Of a stretch of DNA of 64,000 bases, positions 14,260-22,481 are shown one piece after another; within the stretch, counting starts at the first letter, position 1; every line of letters starts with the position of its first letter. Source of the stretch: an uncultured Bacilli bacterium (lineage in GTDB: Bacteria; Bacillota_I; Bacilli_A; RF39; UBA660); NCBI GenBank assembly GCA_934096275.1, contig CAKOLK010000002.1, forward strand, positions 43,784 through 107,783. The letters are read 5' to 3'. The position numbers and the translations under genes are program-made. The notes under the pieces were generated by a model. That model was not told the origin of the DNA. It saw only the letters and a program-made list of their open reading frames with translations, and did not search any database.

Positions 14260-14418
14260 ATGGTTGCAGAAAGATTAAAGAGGTATGCAGTAATTATGAG
14301 TGTTGTTTTTGTACTAGTTATGATTTATTTGACTAGTGTGCATTCTTTTATAGATGCATTTTATTTTCTGATTATGCTATATGGTGTATATGTATTTATA
14401 GAAACAGTAGAGGAATAG
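14260..14418 (+). CDS. Small hydrophobic protein (52 aa), not in the supplied ORF track
   Basis: SD aaaGGAGataatt is followed by ATG. The product MVAERLKRYAVIMSVVFVLVMIYLTSVHSFIDAFYFLIMLYGVYVFIETVEE has two predicted TM helices. A hairpin terminator follows. Confidence 0.4.
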   Translation: MVAERLKRYAVIMSVVFVLVMIYLTSVHSFIDAFYFLIMLYGVYVFIETVEE

Positions 14419-15264: not shown

Positions 15265-15858
15265 TTGAATCATATAAAGAAAAATAGTTTTAAAATATTA
15301 ATGAGTATTTTTAGTGTACTTGGTTTTATGTTTGTATCAGTTGGTGTTGGTATAATGTATGCGTTAGAAACTGATGAATTAAACATTAACACAATTAATG
15401 ATAATAAAAATTTACTTACTTATTCTGATTTAAAGAATGGACAGTCTGAATTGTTGGAAAAGCAGTTAAAACCAGTATTTTATAATAGTATGGCAGATGC
15501 AGTGTTTTATTCAAAGAGCTATCCTACTAGTTTTAAGGCAAAGCTAGTTCATTATGGACCTGATTGTGCTTCTTGTGGTGGTCGTCTTGGTTGTAATGGA
15601 CAGAATGCTAAAAATGGCAATATATATTATAATGATAAAGAGTATGGAAAAATTAGAATTGTTGCTGCTTCAACATTATTACCATGTGGGAGTATTTTGA
15701 AAATTAATTTAGATGCTTATGATAATATGTATGTTATAGTTCTTGATAGAGGAGTGGATTCTTCGATGATTGATTTATTAAAAGAAAGTCAAAGATCTAA
15801 GTCGCCAGTTCGAACTGTAAATAATGTTGTTTTTGATATTGTTAGATATGGATACTAG
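15265..15858 (+). CDS. 3D-domain (RlpA-like double-psi beta-barrel) secreted protein, YabE-like
   Basis: N-terminal TM, and a C-terminal YGKIRIVAAS..LPCGSILKI..YVIVLDRG typical of 3D domains. TTG start after GAGGTGA. Confidence 0.7.
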   Translation: MNHIKKNSFKILMSIFSVLGFMFVSVGVGIMYALETDELNINTINDNKNLLTYSDLKNGQSELLEKQLKPVFYNSMADAVFYSKSYPTSFKAKLVHYGPDCASCGGRLGCNGQNAKNGNIYYNDKEYGKIRIVAASTLLPCGSILKINLDAYDNMYVIVLDRGVDSSMIDLLKESQRSKSPVRTVNNVVFDIVRYGY

Positions 15859-15887
15859 TCAATAGCTTATGTTATTGACTTTTTTTT
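15858..15887 (+). terminator. Rho-independent terminator
   Basis: agtcaata / tattgact stem followed by TTTTTTT. Confidence 0.7.
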
Positions 15888-15917: not shown

Positions 15918-15946
15918 TTGCAATATTTTTAAAAATATATTATCAT
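15918..15946 (+). promoter_or_regulatory. Putative sigma-A promoter of the fibre locus
   Basis: TTGCAA, a 17-nt spacer, then TATCAT, about 27 nt upstream of the first gene's start. Confidence 0.45.
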
Positions 15947-15972
15947 GGTTATAGTAAAGGAGGTTAAACATA

Positions 15973-16557
15973 ATGGAAGATAATAATTCTAAGAAAATTT
16001 TGTTAACTGTTTTAGGTGTTGCAATTCTAATAGTTGCTGTTGTTGGTATTTCATTTGCATTATTTACTTCAAATGATCAAATAACTGGTGAAAATACTAT
16101 TAAGTCTGGAACAGTCACTATGAGTTTCTCAGAAAAAACAAATGGTATTACATTATCTAACGCTTTACCAATGAGCGAAGCTGATGCTTTACAACAATTA
16201 ACTAATGATGGAGATTATTTCGACTTTGATGTTGTTACTAAGACTTCTAAAGCAGGAACAGTTATTCCTTACAAGGTTTCTGTTGCTAAAATTAGTGGCG
16301 ATTTAAATGATAATCAAATAGCTATCAATCTTCAAAAATTAGGAACAGATGGTGATTATACTTCTATAATTACTAATAAAAAAGTTAGTGATTATGCAGA
16401 TGGTGTAATTGTTGATGCTACTGATAATGCAGGTACTGCTGCTGGTAAAACTGATTCTTATAGATTAAGAATTTGGATTGCTAGTGATCAAGATGCTTCT
16501 GCTATTAAGGCTGACTCTAAATATTCTTTAAGAGTTAATGTTAATGGTGGTATTTAA
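15973..16557 (+). CDS. TasA/camelysin (peptidase M73)-like secreted fibre protein, paralogue 1
   Basis: The SipW-cognate style signal LLTVLGVAILIVAVVGISFALFTSND is followed by IKSGTVTMSF (compare TasA ..TWAAFND....ASGTLDLS). Strong SD aaaGGAGG. Confidence 0.75.
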   Translation: MEDNNSKKILLTVLGVAILIVAVVGISFALFTSNDQITGENTIKSGTVTMSFSEKTNGITLSNALPMSEADALQQLTNDGDYFDFDVVTKTSKAGTVIPYKVSVAKISGDLNDNQIAINLQKLGTDGDYTSIITNKKVSDYADGVIVDATDNAGTAAGKTDSYRLRIWIASDQDASAIKADSKYSLRVNVNGGI

Positions 16558-16580
16558 AAATTATGAAAGGAGTTTAAACA

Positions 16581-17354
16581 ATGGAAAATAATAAGACTAT
16601 GATTTTATCAATTCTAGGCGTTCTAGTTTTGGTTATTGCTGTTGTTGGTGTTTCATTTGCTATGTATAGTTTTTCTGCACAAGGTACTAAAGAAAACGTT
16701 ATAACAACAGGTTCAGTTTCATTAGCTATCGACAAGAAAGGAGAATCATTATTTACACTTGACAATGTTTATGGTGTAAATGATGCTACTGGTATTGCTG
16801 GTACTAGTGAAGATGTTGGTACAGGTAATTTTACTTTATCTGCTAATTTATCTGGAACAATGAATATTCATTATGAAGTTGGATTTGTTGATTTAACTGA
16901 AGGTAATTCTAATTTAACTGATAGTATGATAATGGTTGCTATTAAAGATGAAAATAATAATTATTATACTAGTACTGGAAAAACTACTACTGCTACTGCT
17001 GTAACTTTAAATAGTTTTGCAAATAATAAAGGTTATGCTGCTGGCGATACAGGAATGACTGGAATTGATGCAGATACTTATCTATTAAATAGTTATGTAT
17101 TTGATAAAGGTATTGTTACTACTAGTGGAAATCAAAAAACTTACACTATTAATGCATGGATTAGTGATAAATATGTTTTAAAAGGTGGAGAAGAATCAAC
17201 TGCTAATAAAACTACTAATTCTTGTACAGTTGCTGGTAATGCTACTGAAGAAGCTTGTAAGGCTGCTGGTGGGCAATGGACTAATACTCAAACTAAAGAA
17301 ACTACACCAGAAACATTTAGTTTCAAAGTTAAAGTATCAGCTGCTCAATATTAA
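16581..17354 (+). CDS. TasA/camelysin-like secreted fibre protein, paralogue 2
   Basis: ILGVLVLVIAVVGVSFAMYSFS...ITTGSVSLAI. The C-terminal FSFKVKVSAAQ resembles the TasA-family C-terminal strand. Confidence 0.75.
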   Translation: MENNKTMILSILGVLVLVIAVVGVSFAMYSFSAQGTKENVITTGSVSLAIDKKGESLFTLDNVYGVNDATGIAGTSEDVGTGNFTLSANLSGTMNIHYEVGFVDLTEGNSNLTDSMIMVAIKDENNNYYTSTGKTTTATAVTLNSFANNKGYAAGDTGMTGIDADTYLLNSYVFDKGIVTTSGNQKTYTINAWISDKYVLKGGEESTANKTTNSCTVAGNATEEACKAAGGQWTNTQTKETTPETFSFKVKVSAAQY

Positions 17355-17360
17355 TGAATT

Positions 17361-17387
17361 AAGCAAGTATTATCTTGCTTTTTTTTT
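17361..17387 (+). terminator. Rho-independent terminator (possibly partial/attenuating)
   Basis: aagcaag / cttgctt stem followed by TTTTTTT. Confidence 0.65.
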
Positions 17388-17476
17388 ACATTTTTTTATA
17401 AATGTTTTGTAAAATACTTTTATTTTTTTAATATTTGTGTTATTCTATTCTTAGAATAAGAATTGGTGGTGAGATT

Positions 17477-18178
17477 GTGAATAATGATAGAAAGAATGAT
17501 AATAATGAGATTTTAGATATTTCCTCTGATAAAGAGTTAGTGAAAGTTGCTGATGAAGTGGCTTTTGAAATTTTGCATCCAGAAACTGATGATAGTAAAC
17601 ACTTTTTATTTTTATTGTTATTATTTATTATTTTTTTAACCTCTATCATTTCATTTATATGTTTTTCGATGGCAGATCGTTTTAATTCGATAAAAAATAA
17701 TACGATAACTACTGGTTCAGTTTTATTTTCATTTTCTGATGGTAGTAATTACATTAACATGATTGATGTTTATCCAGTATCTGATGATGTTGGAATGAAA
17801 TTGAATGGTAGTAATGAATTGTACGAGTTTAATGTTTCAGAGAAATATTATGGTGATACTTCAAAGAAGAAGCGTTCTGATTATTCAAATTATGAAGTTT
17901 CATTGATATTGAATGATGAGAATACTATTGCTCCTAGTTATATTAAGATTTATTTAATAAAAAATCAAGAAGAAGTTAAAATTAATGATAAAATTATTAA
18001 TAGAATATCTGAACTTCCTAAGAGTAAAGTACAAAATAATGGGTATACTTTAATTAGAAACGAAATAACTGATGATAATTTTGACACATATACTTTTAGA
18101 ATGTGGTTATCTAATGATTATAAGGTTGATAATATTTCTAGAGTGTTTAAGTGTAAAATTGTTGTTAATAGTTATTAA
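17477..18178 (+). CDS. TasA-like paralogue 3 with a long N-terminal cytoplasmic extension
   Basis: GTG 17477 follows GGTGGTGAG. About 55 polar residues precede the TM, then FSMADRFNS...ITTGSVLFSF, the same motif as paralogues 1 and 2. Confidence 0.6.
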   Translation: MNNDRKNDNNEILDISSDKELVKVADEVAFEILHPETDDSKHFLFLLLLFIIFLTSIISFICFSMADRFNSIKNNTITTGSVLFSFSDGSNYINMIDVYPVSDDVGMKLNGSNELYEFNVSEKYYGDTSKKKRSDYSNYEVSLILNDENTIAPSYIKIYLIKNQEEVKINDKIINRISELPKSKVQNNGYTLIRNEITDDNFDTYTFRMWLSNDYKVDNISRVFKCKIVVNSY

Positions 18179-18186
18179 AGAAAGGG

Positions 18187-18858
18187 TTGGTAGTAGTGAA
18201 AAAAAAGTTAAAGCTAGTTTCTAAAATTATTTCTTCAACTTTGTTTGTAATACTTTTATTTATAATGGTTTTTTTGCTTGTGTATGTTATCAGAGTAAAA
18301 ATTCTTGCAAATAATAATGATTTGGGCGAAGTAAAATTGAATTTTTATACAATACTTTCTCCGAGTATGTATCCGACGATAAAACCTGGTGATATTATTG
18401 TTACATATAAAGAAGATGCTTATTATAAAGGCGATATTATTACTTTTGTTTCTTCATCAAATATTAGTAGTGGAAAGACTATTACGCATAGAATATATTC
18501 CGAACCTATTGAAATGAATGGCAAGATGCAATATACTACGAAAGGTGATAATAATCCTACTCCAGATAGTGCTCCTGCTAATGAGGATAATGTCTTAGGC
18601 AAGGTTTTATTTAAAATACCAAAGGCTGGTTATATACAGCAATTTTTATTATCGAAAATTGGTTGGGTCTCTGTTATTTTACTTCCTTGTATTGGGGTAG
18701 TTATATATGATATTTTAAAAATATTTAGGATTGCTGGGAAAAAAACAAAGTCGGCGATTAAAAAAAATGCTAGAGTAGATGTTGCACGTGGTGAACTTAT
18801 TAAAACATTAAATGAAGAACAATATGATAAAAATAAAAAAAATGATGAGGAGAAATGA
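18187..18858 (+). CDS. sipW: SipW-type (ER/archaeal type) signal peptidase I
   Basis: SPSMYPTI (Ser), ITHRI (His) and TKGDNNPTPDSAP..EDNV..IPKAGY align closely with B. subtilis SipW as I recall it. Has a C-terminal TM. The start may be GTG 18196. Confidence 0.88.
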   Translation: MVVVKKKLKLVSKIISSTLFVILLFIMVFLLVYVIRVKILANNNDLGEVKLNFYTILSPSMYPTIKPGDIIVTYKEDAYYKGDIITFVSSSNISSGKTITHRIYSEPIEMNGKMQYTTKGDNNPTPDSAPANEDNVLGKVLFKIPKAGYIQQFLLSKIGWVSVILLPCIGVVIYDILKIFRIAGKKTKSAIKKNARVDVARGELIKTLNEEQYDKNKKNDEEK

Positions 18859-19550
18859 TTATGATGAAAGAATTTTTTAAGCTTTTTGGAAATATTATGA
18901 TGATGTTAGGAATTATGATGGCTTCATTTTTGCTATTAATTAATTTATATCACTATAGGGATTTAACTCATACTTATAATATTGATATTGATGAGAATGT
19001 TTCATATAAAAATATTAAAAATAATATTGGTAAATCTGAAAAATTATTGTCTATTGACATGGGTAAGGTAAATGCCGAAAACTATGATTCTGCTAAGGCT
19101 GTTAAAGTTTCTATTAATAAGTGTATTACCACTTTTAAAGATTCGGATTTATATAATAAATCAGGTATATATAATTTTAAGTATTATGATACTTATTTGA
19201 ACATGAATTATTTATATACTAAGATTAACTCTGATTGTAATAGTTTGCTAAAATATAATATTAAGCCTTATATTGAATCTAATGCTAATATTAAATCTAG
19301 TTATGATAATATGATGGTTAATTATGATAAAATCTTTGATGTTGTTATAAGTAACTCTAATTATATGGAGAAAAAATCATTAAATACTAATTCTTATTTC
19401 TTTACTAGTGAAATGAATAGATTTTCTATTTTTGATGATTTAAGAAGTGATACAGAGTTTACATTAAGAAATTATGATATAGTTTCATCACTTATTTTAG
19501 ATTTGTCTACTTGGTATTCTAATACTTTTGGAGGTGGTTCAAATGAGTAA
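18855..19550 (+). CDS. Single-pass membrane/secreted protein of unknown function (fibre-locus gene 5)
   Basis: The ATGA overlaps the sipW stop. Has an N-terminal TM and an N/Y/S-rich ectodomain. I recognise no family. Confidence 0.5.
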   Translation: MIMMKEFFKLFGNIMMMLGIMMASFLLLINLYHYRDLTHTYNIDIDENVSYKNIKNNIGKSEKLLSIDMGKVNAENYDSAKAVKVSINKCITTFKDSDLYNKSGIYNFKYYDTYLNMNYLYTKINSDCNSLLKYNIKPYIESNANIKSSYDNMMVNYDKIFDVVISNSNYMEKKSLNTNSYFFTSEMNRFSIFDDLRSDTEFTLRNYDIVSSLILDLSTWYSNTFGGGSNE

Positions 19551-20013
19551 TATTTTTTCGAAAATTTTCTTTTTCTTAAGATATGTCCTAATTATTATAG
19601 CATTCTTATTAATTTTTTGGGGCATTATGTTTACTTATCAAAGGCTTGAAAAACCATTATCTGAATCTATTAATGTAATACTTCCATTTGTTTTGGTTTT
19701 TATAGTTTTTATAGCTAATTTATTTGTTGCTAAAAAAGCATGTAGCGAAAATTTATTATTTAATTTTGGTTCATTTTTAATTCTGATAGTAATTATATTA
19801 ATTGGTTTGAGAGCTAAATTTGATACAAATATGTTAATTTATTATAAGTATAATATTTCATATAATTCCGCTTATTTGGCTGATAATCTTGCGATGATTG
19901 AATCAATGTTGTATATTATTTTTGGCTCAAATATTTTACTTATTATTGGAGAATTATTTAATAAAAAAGTTAAGAAACAAGATGCAAAAGATAAACCTAA
20001 TAAATCTAAGTAA
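19543..20013 (+). CDS. Four-TM membrane protein of unknown function (fibre-locus gene 6)
   Basis: GGAGGTGG precedes ATG 19543, with an 8-nt overlap onto the previous ORF. Four hydrophobic segments and a basic tail. Confidence 0.5.
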   Translation: MSNIFSKIFFFLRYVLIIIAFLLIFWGIMFTYQRLEKPLSESINVILPFVLVFIVFIANLFVAKKACSENLLFNFGSFLILIVIILIGLRAKFDTNMLIYYKYNISYNSAYLADNLAMIESMLYIIFGSNILLIIGELFNKKVKKQDAKDKPNKSK

Positions 20014-20076
20014 TATATTTTGTAATATTTGGAACAAGTTAGTGCAATTTTACTTTCTTACTTTTTGGTACTATAA

Positions 20077-20127
20077 AAGTGTAATAGTTAATTACTAAAA
20101 TGTGATTGAATATTACACTTTTTTTAT
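20077..20127 (+). terminator. Rho-independent terminator of the fibre locus
   Basis: aaagtgtaata ... tattacacttt stem followed by TTTTTT. The loop is long. Confidence 0.55.
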
Positions 20128-20330
20128 TATGATTGAAATGATTGGATAATGTGGTACTTTTAGAGATAAAGTTCTTGACATAAAGGGTGTTATTAAATTT
20201 TTATATAATATATTCGTTTAAGCAAGTTAAAATTGAAACAATTCTTGGGTAAAGAACCAAAATGAGGATATGTATGGGAATTGTAATTAATCATAATATA
20301 AAGAATAGAAAATCAAAGGGAAAGAGAAAA

Positions 20331-20730
20331 TGGAGTATGGAGTTGGAATTGTTATTCCAAAAAAAGTCCAATAACAATATTATCACTTGAGTGACAGGTA
20401 ATTGAAGATCCTTTTGAAATAAGCCATGATATTATGGACTAGAACTATTGTAAAAAAATGTAAGATATTCCAAATGAAGATTTAAAAATTATAATGAAAG
20501 TAACAGAAACCTATCATTTATCAATACTAGGTTATTTACTTAATGAAGGATATTTTGTTCTTGCAGAAAATACTTTAAGGATTAAAAAATATCTTGATAG
20601 AGGTTTAAGAAAATTCAAAACAGATAAAAAGGATTCACTAAAATTAGCAAAATATGTCTGTGATAATTGGTGTAAGTTGAATAAAGTAAGGGAAAATGAT
20701 AAAACTTATCTGAAAATAGAACTGAGTTGA
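20331..20730 (+). pseudogene. Degraded, truncated IS110-family transposase (N-terminal DEDD domain remnant)
   Basis: 20494-20730 encodes ETYHLSILGYLLNEGYFVLAENTL.IKKY...RK.KTDKKDSLKLAKY (compare the IS110 motif ATG.YH..L...L...G..V.V.NP...K......KTDK.DA..IA). Upstream MEYGVGIVIPKK resembles the VGIDVSK start but is interrupted by stops. The C-terminal transposase domain is absent. Confidence 0.7.
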
Positions 20731-20827
20731 GGTAATTTGTGTAGTAAAAATACCCTTGTTAGAAAGTAATGCGTTTTTTCTTTTGTTTTTTTTAGAAAAG
20801 TGTTATTATTTATATGGAGGTACTTTT

Positions 20828-21643
20828 ATGTTGAAAGACTTTAATTTTAAAAAAAAATATGGACAAAATTTTTTAGTTGATAAAAACATTGTTAATAAGA
20901 TAATAAATAATGTGGAATCATTAACTGATTCTTTGGTTATAGAAATAGGCTGTGGTGATGGAAAGTTAACTAATGAGTTATGTAAAAAATTTAATTATGT
21001 TCTTGGATATGAAATTGATTTAGATGTAAAGGATAGACTTATTGCAAATCTTAGCACTTTTAGTAATTATAAGATTATTTTTGATGATTTTTTAAACAGA
21101 AATTTAGTTGATGATATTAGCGATTTGTCTTATTCTAATATATGTGTTATAGCTAATTTACCTTATTATGTTACCACTGCGATTATAGAGAAATTAATTT
21201 TATCTGGTATTAATTTTGAATTTATGAATTTTATGGTTCAAAATGAGGTTGCTGATAGATTTGTTGCTAATGTTGGTACTAAAGAATATAATTCTTTGAC
21301 TGTTTTTTTAAGTTATAAATATGATGTTAAAAAGTTATTTGTTGTTAATAGAAAATGCTTTTATCCTGTTCCTAATGTTGATAGTGCTATAGTTTGTTTT
21401 AAGAAAAAGGAAAATAAATGTAATGTTTTAAATGAGGATCTATTTTTTAGATTGATAAGAGATTCATTTAAGTTCAAACGAAAAACTTTGAAGAATAATC
21501 TCTCTATGTATAATCTTGAAATTGTTTCTGATGTTTTGAAAAAATATAACTTTGATTTAAGTGTTAGGGCTGAACAACTTAGTATAGAAATTTTTTGTGA
21601 TATTGCTAATACTTTGAATATGGAGGTTTCTAATGAAGAATAA
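20828..21643 (+). CDS. rsmA: 16S rRNA (adenine1518/1519-N6)-dimethyltransferase
   Basis: KKKYGQNFLVD, EIGCGDG and NLPYY motifs. GGAGG precedes ATG 20828. Confidence 0.93.
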   Translation: MLKDFNFKKKYGQNFLVDKNIVNKIINNVESLTDSLVIEIGCGDGKLTNELCKKFNYVLGYEIDLDVKDRLIANLSTFSNYKIIFDDFLNRNLVDDISDLSYSNICVIANLPYYVTTAIIEKLILSGINFEFMNFMVQNEVADRFVANVGTKEYNSLTVFLSYKYDVKKLFVVNRKCFYPVPNVDSAIVCFKKKENKCNVLNEDLFFRLIRDSFKFKRKTLKNNLSMYNLEIVSDVLKKYNFDLSVRAEQLSIEIFCDIANTLNMEVSNEE

Positions 21644-22481
21644 TATTAATAGAAGTTGTGTAAAAAAAATAAGGACTAAAACAATATTGTTTAGTGCTTT
21701 GTTTGTTGTTTTTGCTATTGGCCTTATTATTAGTTTGCTTGAAATATTTTTTTGGAATAATGATAACAATAATATTTTAAAGCTTTCTGATGACATAAGC
21801 AGAAACACTGAGGTTAAGATGGTTGATGATAATAAAAATACTGAGGTTATTGAAGATAAAACTATAAAAAATGATAAGAATAATAGTTATTGGCAATTTA
21901 TTAAAATGCCTTTGATTGATGTTGATATTAATGGTCTAATAAAGCAAAACAGTGATACTGTTGGTTGGATTAATGTTAACAATACTAATATTAATTATCC
22001 ATTTGTGCAAACAAAAGATAATAAATATTATTTGACACATGCTTTTGATAAAAGTTGGAATGATGCTGGATGGGTATTTTTAGATTATAGAAATAGTAAA
22101 GATTTTTCTAGTAAAAATAATATTATTTATGGACATTCTAGATTAGATAAGACTATGTTTGGTTCTTTACATAATGTTCTTACTAGTAATTGGTATAATA
22201 ATAAGAATAATCATGTAATTAGATTATCTACTCAAACTGAGAATACAATGTGGCAAATTTTTTCTGTTTATAAAGTTCCCATGGAAACTTACTATCTAAC
22301 TACTGATTTTACTAGTTCTTCTGAGTATTCTGATTTTTTAAAAACTATTAAAGATAGAAGTGTTCATAGCTTTGGTGTTAGTGTTAGTTCTAGTGATAAA
22401 ATTCTTACACTTAGTACTTGTTCTAATAATAATAAACGTGTTGTTGTGCATGCTAAGTTAATTAAAAGAAGTTATAAATAA
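21633..22481 (+). CDS. srtB: Class B sortase
   Basis: N-terminal TM, DNKYYLTHAFD, IIYGHS (His), LTLSTC (Cys) and a downstream Arg. Overlaps the rsmA 3' end by 11 nt. Confidence 0.8.
   Translation: MKNNINRSCVKKIRTKTILFSALFVVFAIGLIISLLEIFFWNNDNNNILKLSDDISRNTEVKMVDDNKNTEVIEDKTIKNDKNNSYWQFIKMPLIDVDINGLIKQNSDTVGWINVNNTNINYPFVQTKDNKYYLTHAFDKSWNDAGWVFLDYRNSKDFSSKNNIIYGHSRLDKTMFGSLHNVLTSNWYNNKNNHVIRLSTQTENTMWQIFSVYKVPMETYYLTTDFTSSSEYSDFLKTIKDRSVHSFGVSVSSSDKILTLSTCSNNNKRVVVHAKLIKRSYK

Follow-up and report, generated by a model that had tools for sequence, protein, structure and literature searches.

A six-gene cassette of TasA-like proteins, a SipW-type signal peptidase and two membrane proteins: a candidate surface-fibre system in an uncultured family of gut Bacilli

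The DNA considered here, referred to below as the window, is a stretch of 64,000 nucleotides from contig CAKOLK010000002.1 of an uncultured Bacilli bacterium (assembly GCA_934096275.1). Positions 15918-20127 of the window hold six open reading frames (ORFs), all on the plus strand and arranged as a single co-directional unit, which encode three related proteins with a hydrophobic N-terminal segment (P0001-P0003), a SipW-type signal peptidase (P0004) and two membrane proteins of no known family (P0005 and P0006). An earlier note, made from the sequence alone, had presented this cassette as a TasA/camelysin-type fibre locus with a dedicated peptidase, inserted into the junction between yabE and rsmA. 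It is argued below that the cassette probably encodes a SipW-processed, donor-strand fibre of TasA-like subunits that may also display adhesin-like heads. The features of the unit and of its borders are as follows, with an arrow marking a cleavage position.

15857-15880, plus strand: terminator-like hairpin that closes the yabE-like gene upstream and sets the 5' limit of the unit (10-pair stem and T run; -11.7 kcal/mol, z -4.70)
15918-15946, plus strand: promoter-like site, TTGCAA-17-TATCAT (9 of 12 matches)
15973-16557, plus strand: P0001, 194 amino acids (aa), candidate major fibre subunit; signal peptide about residues 1-29 (..GISFA↓LF), predicted donor strand about residues 30-42, TasA-fold beta-sandwich residues 46-194
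16581-17354, plus strand: P0002, 257 aa, second subunit paralogue (..GVSFA↓MY); family profile match 2.5e-30; insertions and a Cys-containing C-terminal extension
17361-17380, plus strand: internal terminator-like hairpin between P0002 and P0003 (-9.1 kcal/mol, z -3.59)
17477-18178, plus strand (ORF open from 17435): P0003, about 233 aa, variant subunit; family profile match 5.6e-31
18196-18858, plus strand (ORF open from 18187): P0004, about 220 aa, SipW-type (ER/archaeal-type) signal peptidase I (TIGR02228) with two transmembrane segments
18861-19550, plus strand: P0005, 229 aa, bitopic membrane protein of no known family; N-terminal transmembrane helix and extracytoplasmic helical bundle (AlphaFold2 predicted local distance difference test score, pLDDT, 84.1)
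19543-20013, plus strand: P0006, about 156 aa, membrane protein of no known family with four transmembrane segments; overlaps the end of P0005 by 8 nt
20075-20122, plus strand: terminal hairpin and U run at the 3' end of the unit (-20.6 kcal/mol, z -5.07; 0 of 200 shuffled sequences fold as well)

The reading frames as such extend over 15973-16557 (194 aa), 16581-17354 (257 aa), 17435-18178 (at most 247 aa), 18187-18858 (223 aa), 18855-19550 (231 aa) and 19528-20013 (161 aa). Orthologues and ribosome-binding sites point to GTG at 17477 as the likely start of P0003, GTG at 18196 as that of the peptidase, ATG at 18861 as that of P0005 and ATG at 19543 as that of P0006. The last three genes are tightly packed, as P0005 begins 3 nt past the stop of the peptidase gene and the P0006 gene opens within the final 8 nt of P0005. 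A Shine-Dalgarno sequence precedes each gene (AAAGGAGG, AAAGGAG, GGTGGTGAG, GAGGAG and GGAGGTG), so that both the strong Shine-Dalgarno sequences and the terminal hairpin that had been attributed to the block are indeed there. The promoter that had been assigned to it fares less well: the site is present, but promoter-like matches are no more frequent in this AT-rich DNA than in shuffled sequence (49 versus 41 +/- 6.3), and the assignment is a weak one whose chief support is the position of the site between a terminator and a strong Shine-Dalgarno sequence. The hairpin at 17361-17380 is a possible attenuator, which would raise the first two subunits relative to the rest.

The first three ORFs are paralogues, with P0001 matching P0002 at E 3e-13 over the first 80 residues and P0003 at E 1e-8 over the whole domain. 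As had been noticed from the sequence, they share a hydrophobic segment (ending in ..SFALF, ..SFAMY and ..FSMAD in P0001, P0002 and P0003, respectively) and a motif downstream of it (IKSGTVTMSF, ITTGSVSLAI and ITTGSVLFSF), the common pattern of which is I-x-[ST]-G-[ST]-V. An alignment of 87 diverse family sequences (A2), which served as input to AlphaFold2 and to the profile searches, yields a family profile to which P0001 is the top match of the genome (194.8 bits); the mature form of P0001 has an isoelectric point (pI) of 4.5. Orthologues of P0002 with the same N-terminus are present in relatives. P0003 departs from the other two in having an acidic cytoplasmic N-terminal extension of about 45 aa and a non-canonical cleavage region, ISFI↓CF, followed four residues on by S-M-A↓D.

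An indication of what these proteins are comes from predicted structure. The AlphaFold2 model of P0001 (pLDDT 90.4) shows a helix at residues 5-32 and a beta-sandwich of eight strands at 48-192, joined by a linker of lower confidence, and its best match in the PDB by Foldseek is the TasA fibre subunit 8aur_A (E 1.6e-5, probability 1.0). The same chain heads the list of VIA, an independent alignment of the model against representative chains, with a Z of 9.0 and a root-mean-square deviation of 3.4 A over 134 residues, and is the sole match with Z of at least 8 among 48,161 chains; a repeat look gave the same result. Next in the VIA list come other donor-strand fibres, namely the Pyrodictium cannulae (Z 6.9), pilins of the Fim, Pap and Csu type (Z 5-6.5) and the archaeal bundling pilus 7ueg (Z 5.4). 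A comparison of the A2 profile by hhalign with a protein that passes PF12389 (L061:1486-2112; here and below L, C and G are our numbers for loci, contigs and genomes) gave a suggestive probability of 83% (E 8.9e-6, 112 columns), and PF12389 in turn weakly matches the N-termini of larger proteins of the genome that carry the same module (up to 17.7 bits). Since 8AUR is the best match by two methods, the models support a structural place for P0001-type subunits within the TasA superfamily, and the TasA-like fold that the earlier note had anticipated is thus matched by a structural similarity to TasA. The superfamily is defined by structure and takes in TasA, BsaA, AbpA, AbpX, CanA, thread and Tafi. 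The locus of the protein that passes PF12389, L061 (G045:C46:5821-8967), lies in another family of the same class; its 3.1 kb encode an exported protein of 161 aa, a SipW-type peptidase of 259 aa and this TasA-like protein, of 209 aa; homologues of P0005 and P0006 are absent from it.

The end of the hydrophobic segment carries a TasA-like family cleavage motif, [ST]-[FY]-A↓x-[FY]. Its residues are conserved family-wide, for among the 87 sequences of A2 there is Gly at -5 in 82, Ser or Thr at -3 in 83, Phe or Tyr at -2 in 80, Ala at -1 in 84 and Phe or Tyr at +2 in 80, which bears out the TasA-like signal that had been read from the three proteins of the window. Conservation extends beyond the motif to a segment N-x-I-x-x-G (Asn41, Ile43 and Gly46) and to Glu54; Asn41 is found in 84 of the 87 sequences and Glu54 in 79. 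TasA itself is cut at GTWA↓AFND, and its residues 28-38 form the donor strand, with residues 39-47 (FASGTLDLS) as the linker (PMC9674648). Residues 30-42 of P0001 would match this donor strand and IKSGTVTMS its linker, and the correspondence is close.

The peptidase was identified correctly in the earlier note. P0004 scores 110.9 bits on TIGR02228, well beyond the cut-off of 51.85, and has the motifs SPSMYPT, THRI and KGDNN, which, as in SipW of B. subtilis, would hold the catalytic residues Ser, His and Asp. It reaches 96.9 bits on NF046067, the equivalog model for SipW of Bacillus, under the cut-off of 190, and is therefore the same type of enzyme but not the orthologue of the Bacillus protein. 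A separate LepB-type peptidase is encoded on contig C10 (155 bits), so that P0004 is not the housekeeping enzyme. It is the only SipW copy found in this genome, which is 66% complete. That it should be dedicated to the three proteins beside it, as had been claimed, is probably wrong, for the same signal and module occur at 26-28 places in the genome. Additional SipW-type genes, up to seven per genome, are a feature of many genomes of the family (G002, G010, G012, G013, G016-G019, G023-G027 and G030-G034), and none was found in the window's incomplete genome. One recurrent form of these extra genes encodes about 360-405 aa, of which only the first ~130 residues are the peptidase domain.

The two overlapping ORFs at the end of the cassette, for which no family had been recognised, likewise have no Pfam or NCBIfam match, and both are real, conserved membrane proteins. 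In P0005 six residues are nearly invariant (N30, Y32, H33, C90, C128 and W220; alignment A6). Fold searches with its model (Foldseek, VIA wide and Atlas) returned generic helical bundles only, such as the vinculin tail, designed bundles and seven-transmembrane proteins, and for helical proteins a Z of about 10 or less lies under the informative level; a profile search of the PDB gave nothing meaningful. An Atlas feature search with both proteins found unnamed Bacillota clusters only. In a sample of 61 genomes, P0005 and P0006 are confined to an identical set of 12, spread over six genera, in one copy each and next to each other. This set consists of the 13 genomes whose module matches are strongest (best E at most 1e-40), less one. 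Moreover, the pair stands behind the SipW gene in every related locus examined, at times after one extra truncated module gene. This exact co-occurrence and constant position indicate that both proteins are integral to the cassette. Our guess is that they serve as an assembly or anchoring platform together with the peptidase; the Pyrobaculum AbpA operon also encodes several four-transmembrane proteins of unknown role (PMC9245690), which is offered as a parallel only. The truncated module-like gene between the SipW gene and the P0005 homologue (about 171-178 aa; L009:10191-10706, L059:6624-7157 and L048:2197-2733) is absent from the window, and its product may be a minor or cap subunit.

The position of the cassette bears on its history. 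Among the related loci, which were gathered with the SipW protein as query, the order of module genes, SipW, P0005 and P0006 is kept in every one examined, and in at least nine the cassette lies within the order metG-tatD-(yabE-like)-cassette-rsmA-(srtB)-yabG. The survey of related genomes thus recovers the same cassette. For the distant loci, identity to the MetG, TatD and RsmA of the window falls to only 42-65%; because the order is the same even where the housekeeping proteins are so far apart, the cassette is an ancestral feature of the tatD/rsmA site, shared by at least six genera, rather than a recent insertion. The proposed insertion into the yabE-rsmA junction is therefore not peculiar to this genome, as the arrangement is syntenic in distant relatives. 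The upstream gene, for which yabE is a tentative name, has no Pfam match and only a faint RlpA-like one. The reported absence of rnmV is sustained, in that RNase M5 (TIGR00334) was found neither in this genome nor in five relatives that are 95-98% complete. The subunits and P0005 have diverged much faster than their neighbours, with identities to relatives of 24-54% for P0001 and 25-53% for P0005 versus 62-83% for MetG, as expected for exposed surface proteins.

At the right edge of the cassette, the IS110 relic that had been described is a genuine, truncated transposase fragment (20494-20730; PF01548, E 1.6e-11, positions 52-125 of 155). It sits in a 743-bp gap (20014-20755) and is missing in genomes of the same genus, where rsmA follows about 70 bp past the cassette. 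A recent insertion by way of IS110 can accordingly be set aside, since the relic is strain-specific and the cassette is syntenic in distant relatives. Two further genes of the neighbourhood may be mentioned. A class B sortase is encoded at 21633-22481 of the window (TIGR03064, 174 bits), between rsmA and yabG; it occurs at this site in the same genus and in the nearest relative, L007, and not in the more distant L009 and L058-L060. The module proteins lack a sortase signal. Between metG and tatD there is an ORF for a hydrophobic protein of 52 aa (14260-14418), and a called gene of 54-61 aa occupies the same place in L007 and L009.

The module found in P0001-P0003 is by no means confined to the cassette. 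The A2 profile finds this module of about 190 aa at 26-28 places in the 856 kb of the genome, where module genes make up 4.5% of the sequenced bases. About 23 of these genes lie outside the cassette, and at some 20 places the module forms the N-terminus of proteins of about 400-900 aa, the remainder being small. These large paralogues start with ..K-K-K..hydrophobic..G-T-Y-A↓L-W-N..I-T-T-G-Q-V-K-M-S-Y-T-E and differ in their C-terminal regions, of which some have DUF6273, one is dockerin-like and most are unannotated. No LPXTG-type sorting signal was found at their ends, nor any wall-anchor signal. The genes outside the cassette are scattered over contigs C1, C3, C4, C5, C7, C8, C9, C10, C14 and C17 (for example L002, L003 and L014-L027), and about 20 of their products run on into variable C-terminal regions of 200-700 aa. 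Several are near-duplicates, such as two 657-aa proteins on C4, and the endings '..RPVLxLSSNVKISGGxGTSxxPYxLS' and '..SARAVxSNLN' recur.

Genomes of the same genus carry 7-31 module copies per ~1 Mb, and elsewhere in the family the module stands in front of domains such as Big_2, DUF6273, Flg_new, DUF285/LRR and cadherin-like ones. With P0001 as query, 1.84 billion representative proteins yielded 1366 related clusters at E of 1e-3 or below; in the 150 best of those listed the match lies at the N-terminus, in proteins of up to 1264 aa. Among the relatives retrieved by word search, 0 of 114 have a precomputed Pfam domain, and all are named 'hypothetical protein'. In a sample of 250 genomes of the class, the module was detected in 15 of 27 genomes of the host family and in 0 of 222 others (E at most 1e-10). 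By these searches the module is an unannotated family that, within the class sampled, is found only in one family of uncultured gut Bacilli with genomes of about 1 Mb. The carriers are labelled 'uncultured Bacilli bacterium' and are metagenome-assembled genomes of about 0.7-1.4 Mb that come from the gut of Hadza people and of rabbits.

Apart from these proteins, a complete-looking Tad-type pilus cluster is present at about 50-56 kb of G000:C1 (L064:4634-9182, minus strand). It encodes TadE-like and TadF-like pilins, which have a class III signal, as well as two ATPases, one ParA/TadZ-like and the other CpaF/TadA, and two platform proteins of the T2SSF type. The gene for a prepilin peptidase is on C12, and a module-bearing protein of 243 aa lies about 5 kb from the Tad cluster. 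A published TANB77 'pilin' (PMC11680825) belongs to a Tad-type pilus and is unrelated to the proteins discussed here.

These findings can be brought together in a model of how the cassette might work. P0001-P0003 would be exported through Sec, and the adjacent SipW-type peptidase would cut them after the conserved [ST]-[FY]-Ala (Ala29 in P0001). The freed N-terminal strand (x-[FY]..) would then enter the beta-sandwich of the next subunit, as in TasA, AbpA and BsaA, and the surface fibre so built would be held together non-covalently. P0001 would be an abundant subunit, and P0002 perhaps another, since theirs are the first genes and a weak internal terminator follows them. P0003, on account of its cytoplasmic extension and atypical cleavage region, is a candidate for a membrane-tethered base or nucleator that would fill the role of TapA, its own strand not being donated, and a terminal, cell-proximal anchor position in a TasA-type polymer would suit it. 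P0005 and P0006 would probably form an assembly or anchoring platform with the peptidase. The ~23 further module proteins would most likely be cut by the same peptidase and join or lengthen the same fibres, as the large ones among them share the signal and strand and lack any other anchor; the fibre would thereby show interchangeable adhesin-like heads.

A number of observations weigh against this model. Membership of the Peptidase_M73/camelysin family, which the earlier note had implied, is not supported: P0001-P0003 have no match to PF12389 even at E of 1 or below in the Pfam scan, and on the SipW-cognate signal TIGR04088, whose cut-off is 19 bits, no protein does better than P0001, at 14.5 bits, and one large paralogue, at 14.4, so that the motif resembles this model but stays below its threshold. 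More generally, P0001-P0003, P0005 and P0006 have nothing above cut-off in Pfam and NCBIfam scans, PF12389 is passed by 0 of the 27 genomes of the host family in the class sample, and its scores on the N-termini of five large paralogues in the genome-wide scan (12.8-17.7 bits) stay below the gathering score of 22.5. The search of PDB sequences with the family profile returned no TasA chain, and its best matches, all of them weak, were archaeal type IV pilins, namely 6nav (E 0.025) and 8tib (E 0.061). A Z of 9 is just modestly over the typical beta-sandwich background, and the hhalign link, at 83%, stops short of being conclusive, as the alignment consists in part of the hydrophobic signal. The P0003 group has Ile, Met or Val at the canonical -1 position, where a small residue would be expected, along with a conserved S-[MV]-A↓D four residues downstream. 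Lastly, the roles given to P0005 and P0006 are guesses, because their relatives are uninformative.

Some of these points would suit an arrangement in which no fibre is made at all. The hydrophobic segment would remain as an uncleaved signal-anchor helix, the beta-sandwich would serve as a membrane-proximal stalk, the small cassette proteins would be headless members of the set, and SipW would act on few or other substrates. The model of P0001 does have one continuous helix over residues 5-32, and an uncleaved helix would explain how the large paralogues, which lack any other anchoring signal, are retained by the cell. The bulky residue at the canonical -1 of P0003, with its long cytoplasmic extension, and the unmet cut-off of TIGR04088 would also be accounted for. 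Nevertheless, near-invariant Ala at -1 and Ser or Thr at -3 are the signature of signal peptidase I and are needless in a plain anchor; as type I signal peptidase requires these small residues and an anchor does not, processing of the signal is favoured. In addition, the segment past the site is conserved like the donor strand and linker of TasA, in every locus the gene for the peptidase lies among those for module proteins, and the nearest folds are donor-strand fibre subunits. We therefore regard a stalk without a fibre as unlikely, if still the alternative most deserving of attention.

A connection with sporulation is clearly improbable. According to it, the TasA-like proteins would be parts of the spore surface or of spore appendages, not a vegetative fibre or adhesin system, and the cassette does stand in a block with spoVT, yabG, veg, spoVG and yabP. 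An orthologue of P0003 in genome G018 (L052:2870-3643, minus strand) has a LysM-like segment (..YIVKENDTLASIADKYDV..GQQLYIKP) on the cytoplasmic side before its transmembrane helix, an unusual topology for LysM. Such a placement, N-terminal to a transmembrane helix, is known from mother-cell coat proteins. TasA was itself first described in B. subtilis as a SipW-dependent spore-associated protein, and its association with spores is cited in PMC9674648. Adjacency to sporulation genes says little, however, because the flanking genes keep this housekeeping arrangement throughout the Firmicutes, and the ~23 dispersed paralogues with heads of adhesin type (Big_2, Flg_new, LRR and DUF6273) are better suited to attachment to a host or partner. 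That the proteins are type IV pilins of archaeal or Tad-like kind, their helix retained as the filament core and assembled by the Tad machinery of the genome, is scarcely credible, for although 6nav and 8tib are the best PDB sequence matches of the family profile and the genome has a prepilin peptidase, two T2SSE ATPases and a Tad cluster, those matches are weak and mostly hydrophobic helix, the class III motif (G/A before the helix) is lacking and the conserved small residues stand at the C-terminal end of the helix, the genuine Tad pilins are recognised by Pfam (TadE, TadF and Class_IIIsignal) in a separate and unrelated cluster, the cassette has a type I peptidase and neither ATPase nor platform protein, and the beta domain matches TasA and not pilin heads.

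The SipW-processed donor-strand fibre with adhesin-like heads is thus the reading that we prefer. What it draws on directly is the gene content, the fold, the conserved motif, synteny, the multiplication of paralogues and co-occurrence; from these, cleavage, polymerisation, the roles of P0003, P0005 and P0006 and the display of the large paralogues are inferred. A broader version of it may be entertained tentatively, in which the TasA-fold module is a general attachment device of the surface proteome: SipW, with P0005 and P0006, would process 25-30 proteins per genome into heteropolymeric fibres with interchangeable heads, and a subset with Lys73 may be covalently locked as in BsaA. Were this so, the system would be a Gram-positive functional analogue of the tip adhesins of chaperone-usher pili and, for these proteins, would take the place of anchoring by sortase.

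Among the protein scaffolds of Gram-positive biofilms, TasA-type fibres are the best understood, and to our knowledge they have been characterised experimentally only in a few cultured species and some archaea. The cassette would add to them a clade-restricted branch of the TasA superfamily that is invisible to Pfam and resides in abundant, uncultured gut bacteria with small genomes, a branch in which two accessory membrane proteins are new and head-bearing subunits have been greatly expanded across the genome. If the proteins do share one fibre, this would explain attachment and surface variation in bacteria that are reduced and probably dependent on a host or partner. P0005 and P0006 are new candidate assembly factors in a system whose extracellular assembly is still poorly understood, and the domain family of 1366 clusters could enter the family databases.

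The cassette may be compared with several known systems. In concept it is like the chaperone-usher pili of Gram-negative bacteria, with their two-domain adhesins such as FimH and PapG, in that a shared pilin-type module would join adhesin heads to one fibre; unlike them, it has no chaperone, usher or outer membrane, and its module is N-terminal, not C-terminal. No evolutionary relationship is claimed. The CoCoPALM systems resemble it in linking genes of the signal peptidase family to multiple exported, subunit-like proteins in uncultured gut Firmicutes, but their defining McrB-like GTPase (fused to an FtsB-like segment) and McrC homologue are missing from the cassette. Membership of CoCoPALM was rejected, as the six cassette proteins have no GTPase or AAA_5 domain and the AAA_5 matches of the genome lie elsewhere and are generic AAA+; the nearest in the window is an AAA+ ORF of ~660 aa about 7 kb downstream, which by its size and position is probably FtsH.

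Two groups of TasA-like loci also lend themselves to comparison. A 2026 preprint defines a TasA superfamily and, in AbpX-like loci (Pyrodictium abyssi AbpX and its bacterial homologues), distinguishes subunits of major, minor, tip and anchor type; tip or anchor proteins are proposed to join the fibre through donor strands, and the AbpX-like clade is marked by an aromatic residue at +2, an acidic one at +4, a dedicated peptidase with 10 transmembrane segments and a DUF5305 accessory (bioRxiv 10.64898/2026.01.04.697558). The cassette shares with these loci putative major and minor or tip subunits, an adjacent peptidase of the TIGR02228 type, an acidic mature subunit (P0001, by its pI) and an aromatic residue at mature position 2. 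It differs at +4, which is Ser in P0001 and Tyr or Phe in the consensus and not acidic, in a peptidase with 2 transmembrane segments instead of 10, and in having no DUF5305 and no SLH or LPXTG anchor protein that could be recognised among its genes. With the acidic +4, the 10-segment peptidase and DUF5305 all wanting, membership of the AbpX clade was rejected, and neither the sequence search nor the fold search of the PDB brought up an AbpX chain.

The sipW-bsaA-bsaB-bsaC locus of C. perfringens makes matrix fibres of BsaA that are locked by an intermolecular isopeptide bond involving N35, E56 and K74, and remote TasA homologues accompanied by a SipW gene have proved widespread, with 2,172 proteins collected by iterative search (PMC11580942). 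Like this locus, the cassette combines a SipW gene with several remote TasA homologues that are barely linked to TasA by sequence, and for both a polymerisation by donor-strand exchange is predicted. The spacing of Asn41 and Glu54, at the frequencies given above, is reminiscent of the BsaA triad. Unlike BsaA, the family has Lys at the equivalent position 73 in 52 of the 87 sequences and otherwise Met, Leu or Ile, and since the column holds Leu in P0001, Ile in P0002 and Met (then Lys) in P0003, a covalent lock is unsupported for the cassette subunits. A vWA protein such as BsaC is not among the cassette genes.

The nearest characterised system is tapA-sipW-tasA of B. subtilis, whose TasA fibres assemble by donor-strand exchange (PDB 8AUR; PMC9674648, PMC10151520). 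In both, a SipW-type peptidase gene stands among the subunit genes; in both, the subunit has the same beta-sandwich, with 8AUR as the best structural match of P0001, and a signal that ends in small residues at -3 and -1 and aromatic ones at -2 and +2, followed by a conserved ..x-G-T/S.. segment. The cassette departs from the Bacillus operon along the lines that the earlier note had drawn. No TapA-like gene was recognised, there are three to five subunit paralogues in place of one, and the two extra membrane proteins, P0005 and P0006, are real and conserved. To this may be added that PF12389 is not matched, that P0005 and P0006 have no relatives in Bacillus and that the module also serves as the N-terminus of some 20 large proteins per genome, in a host that is an uncultured gut bacterium with a genome of about 1 Mb.

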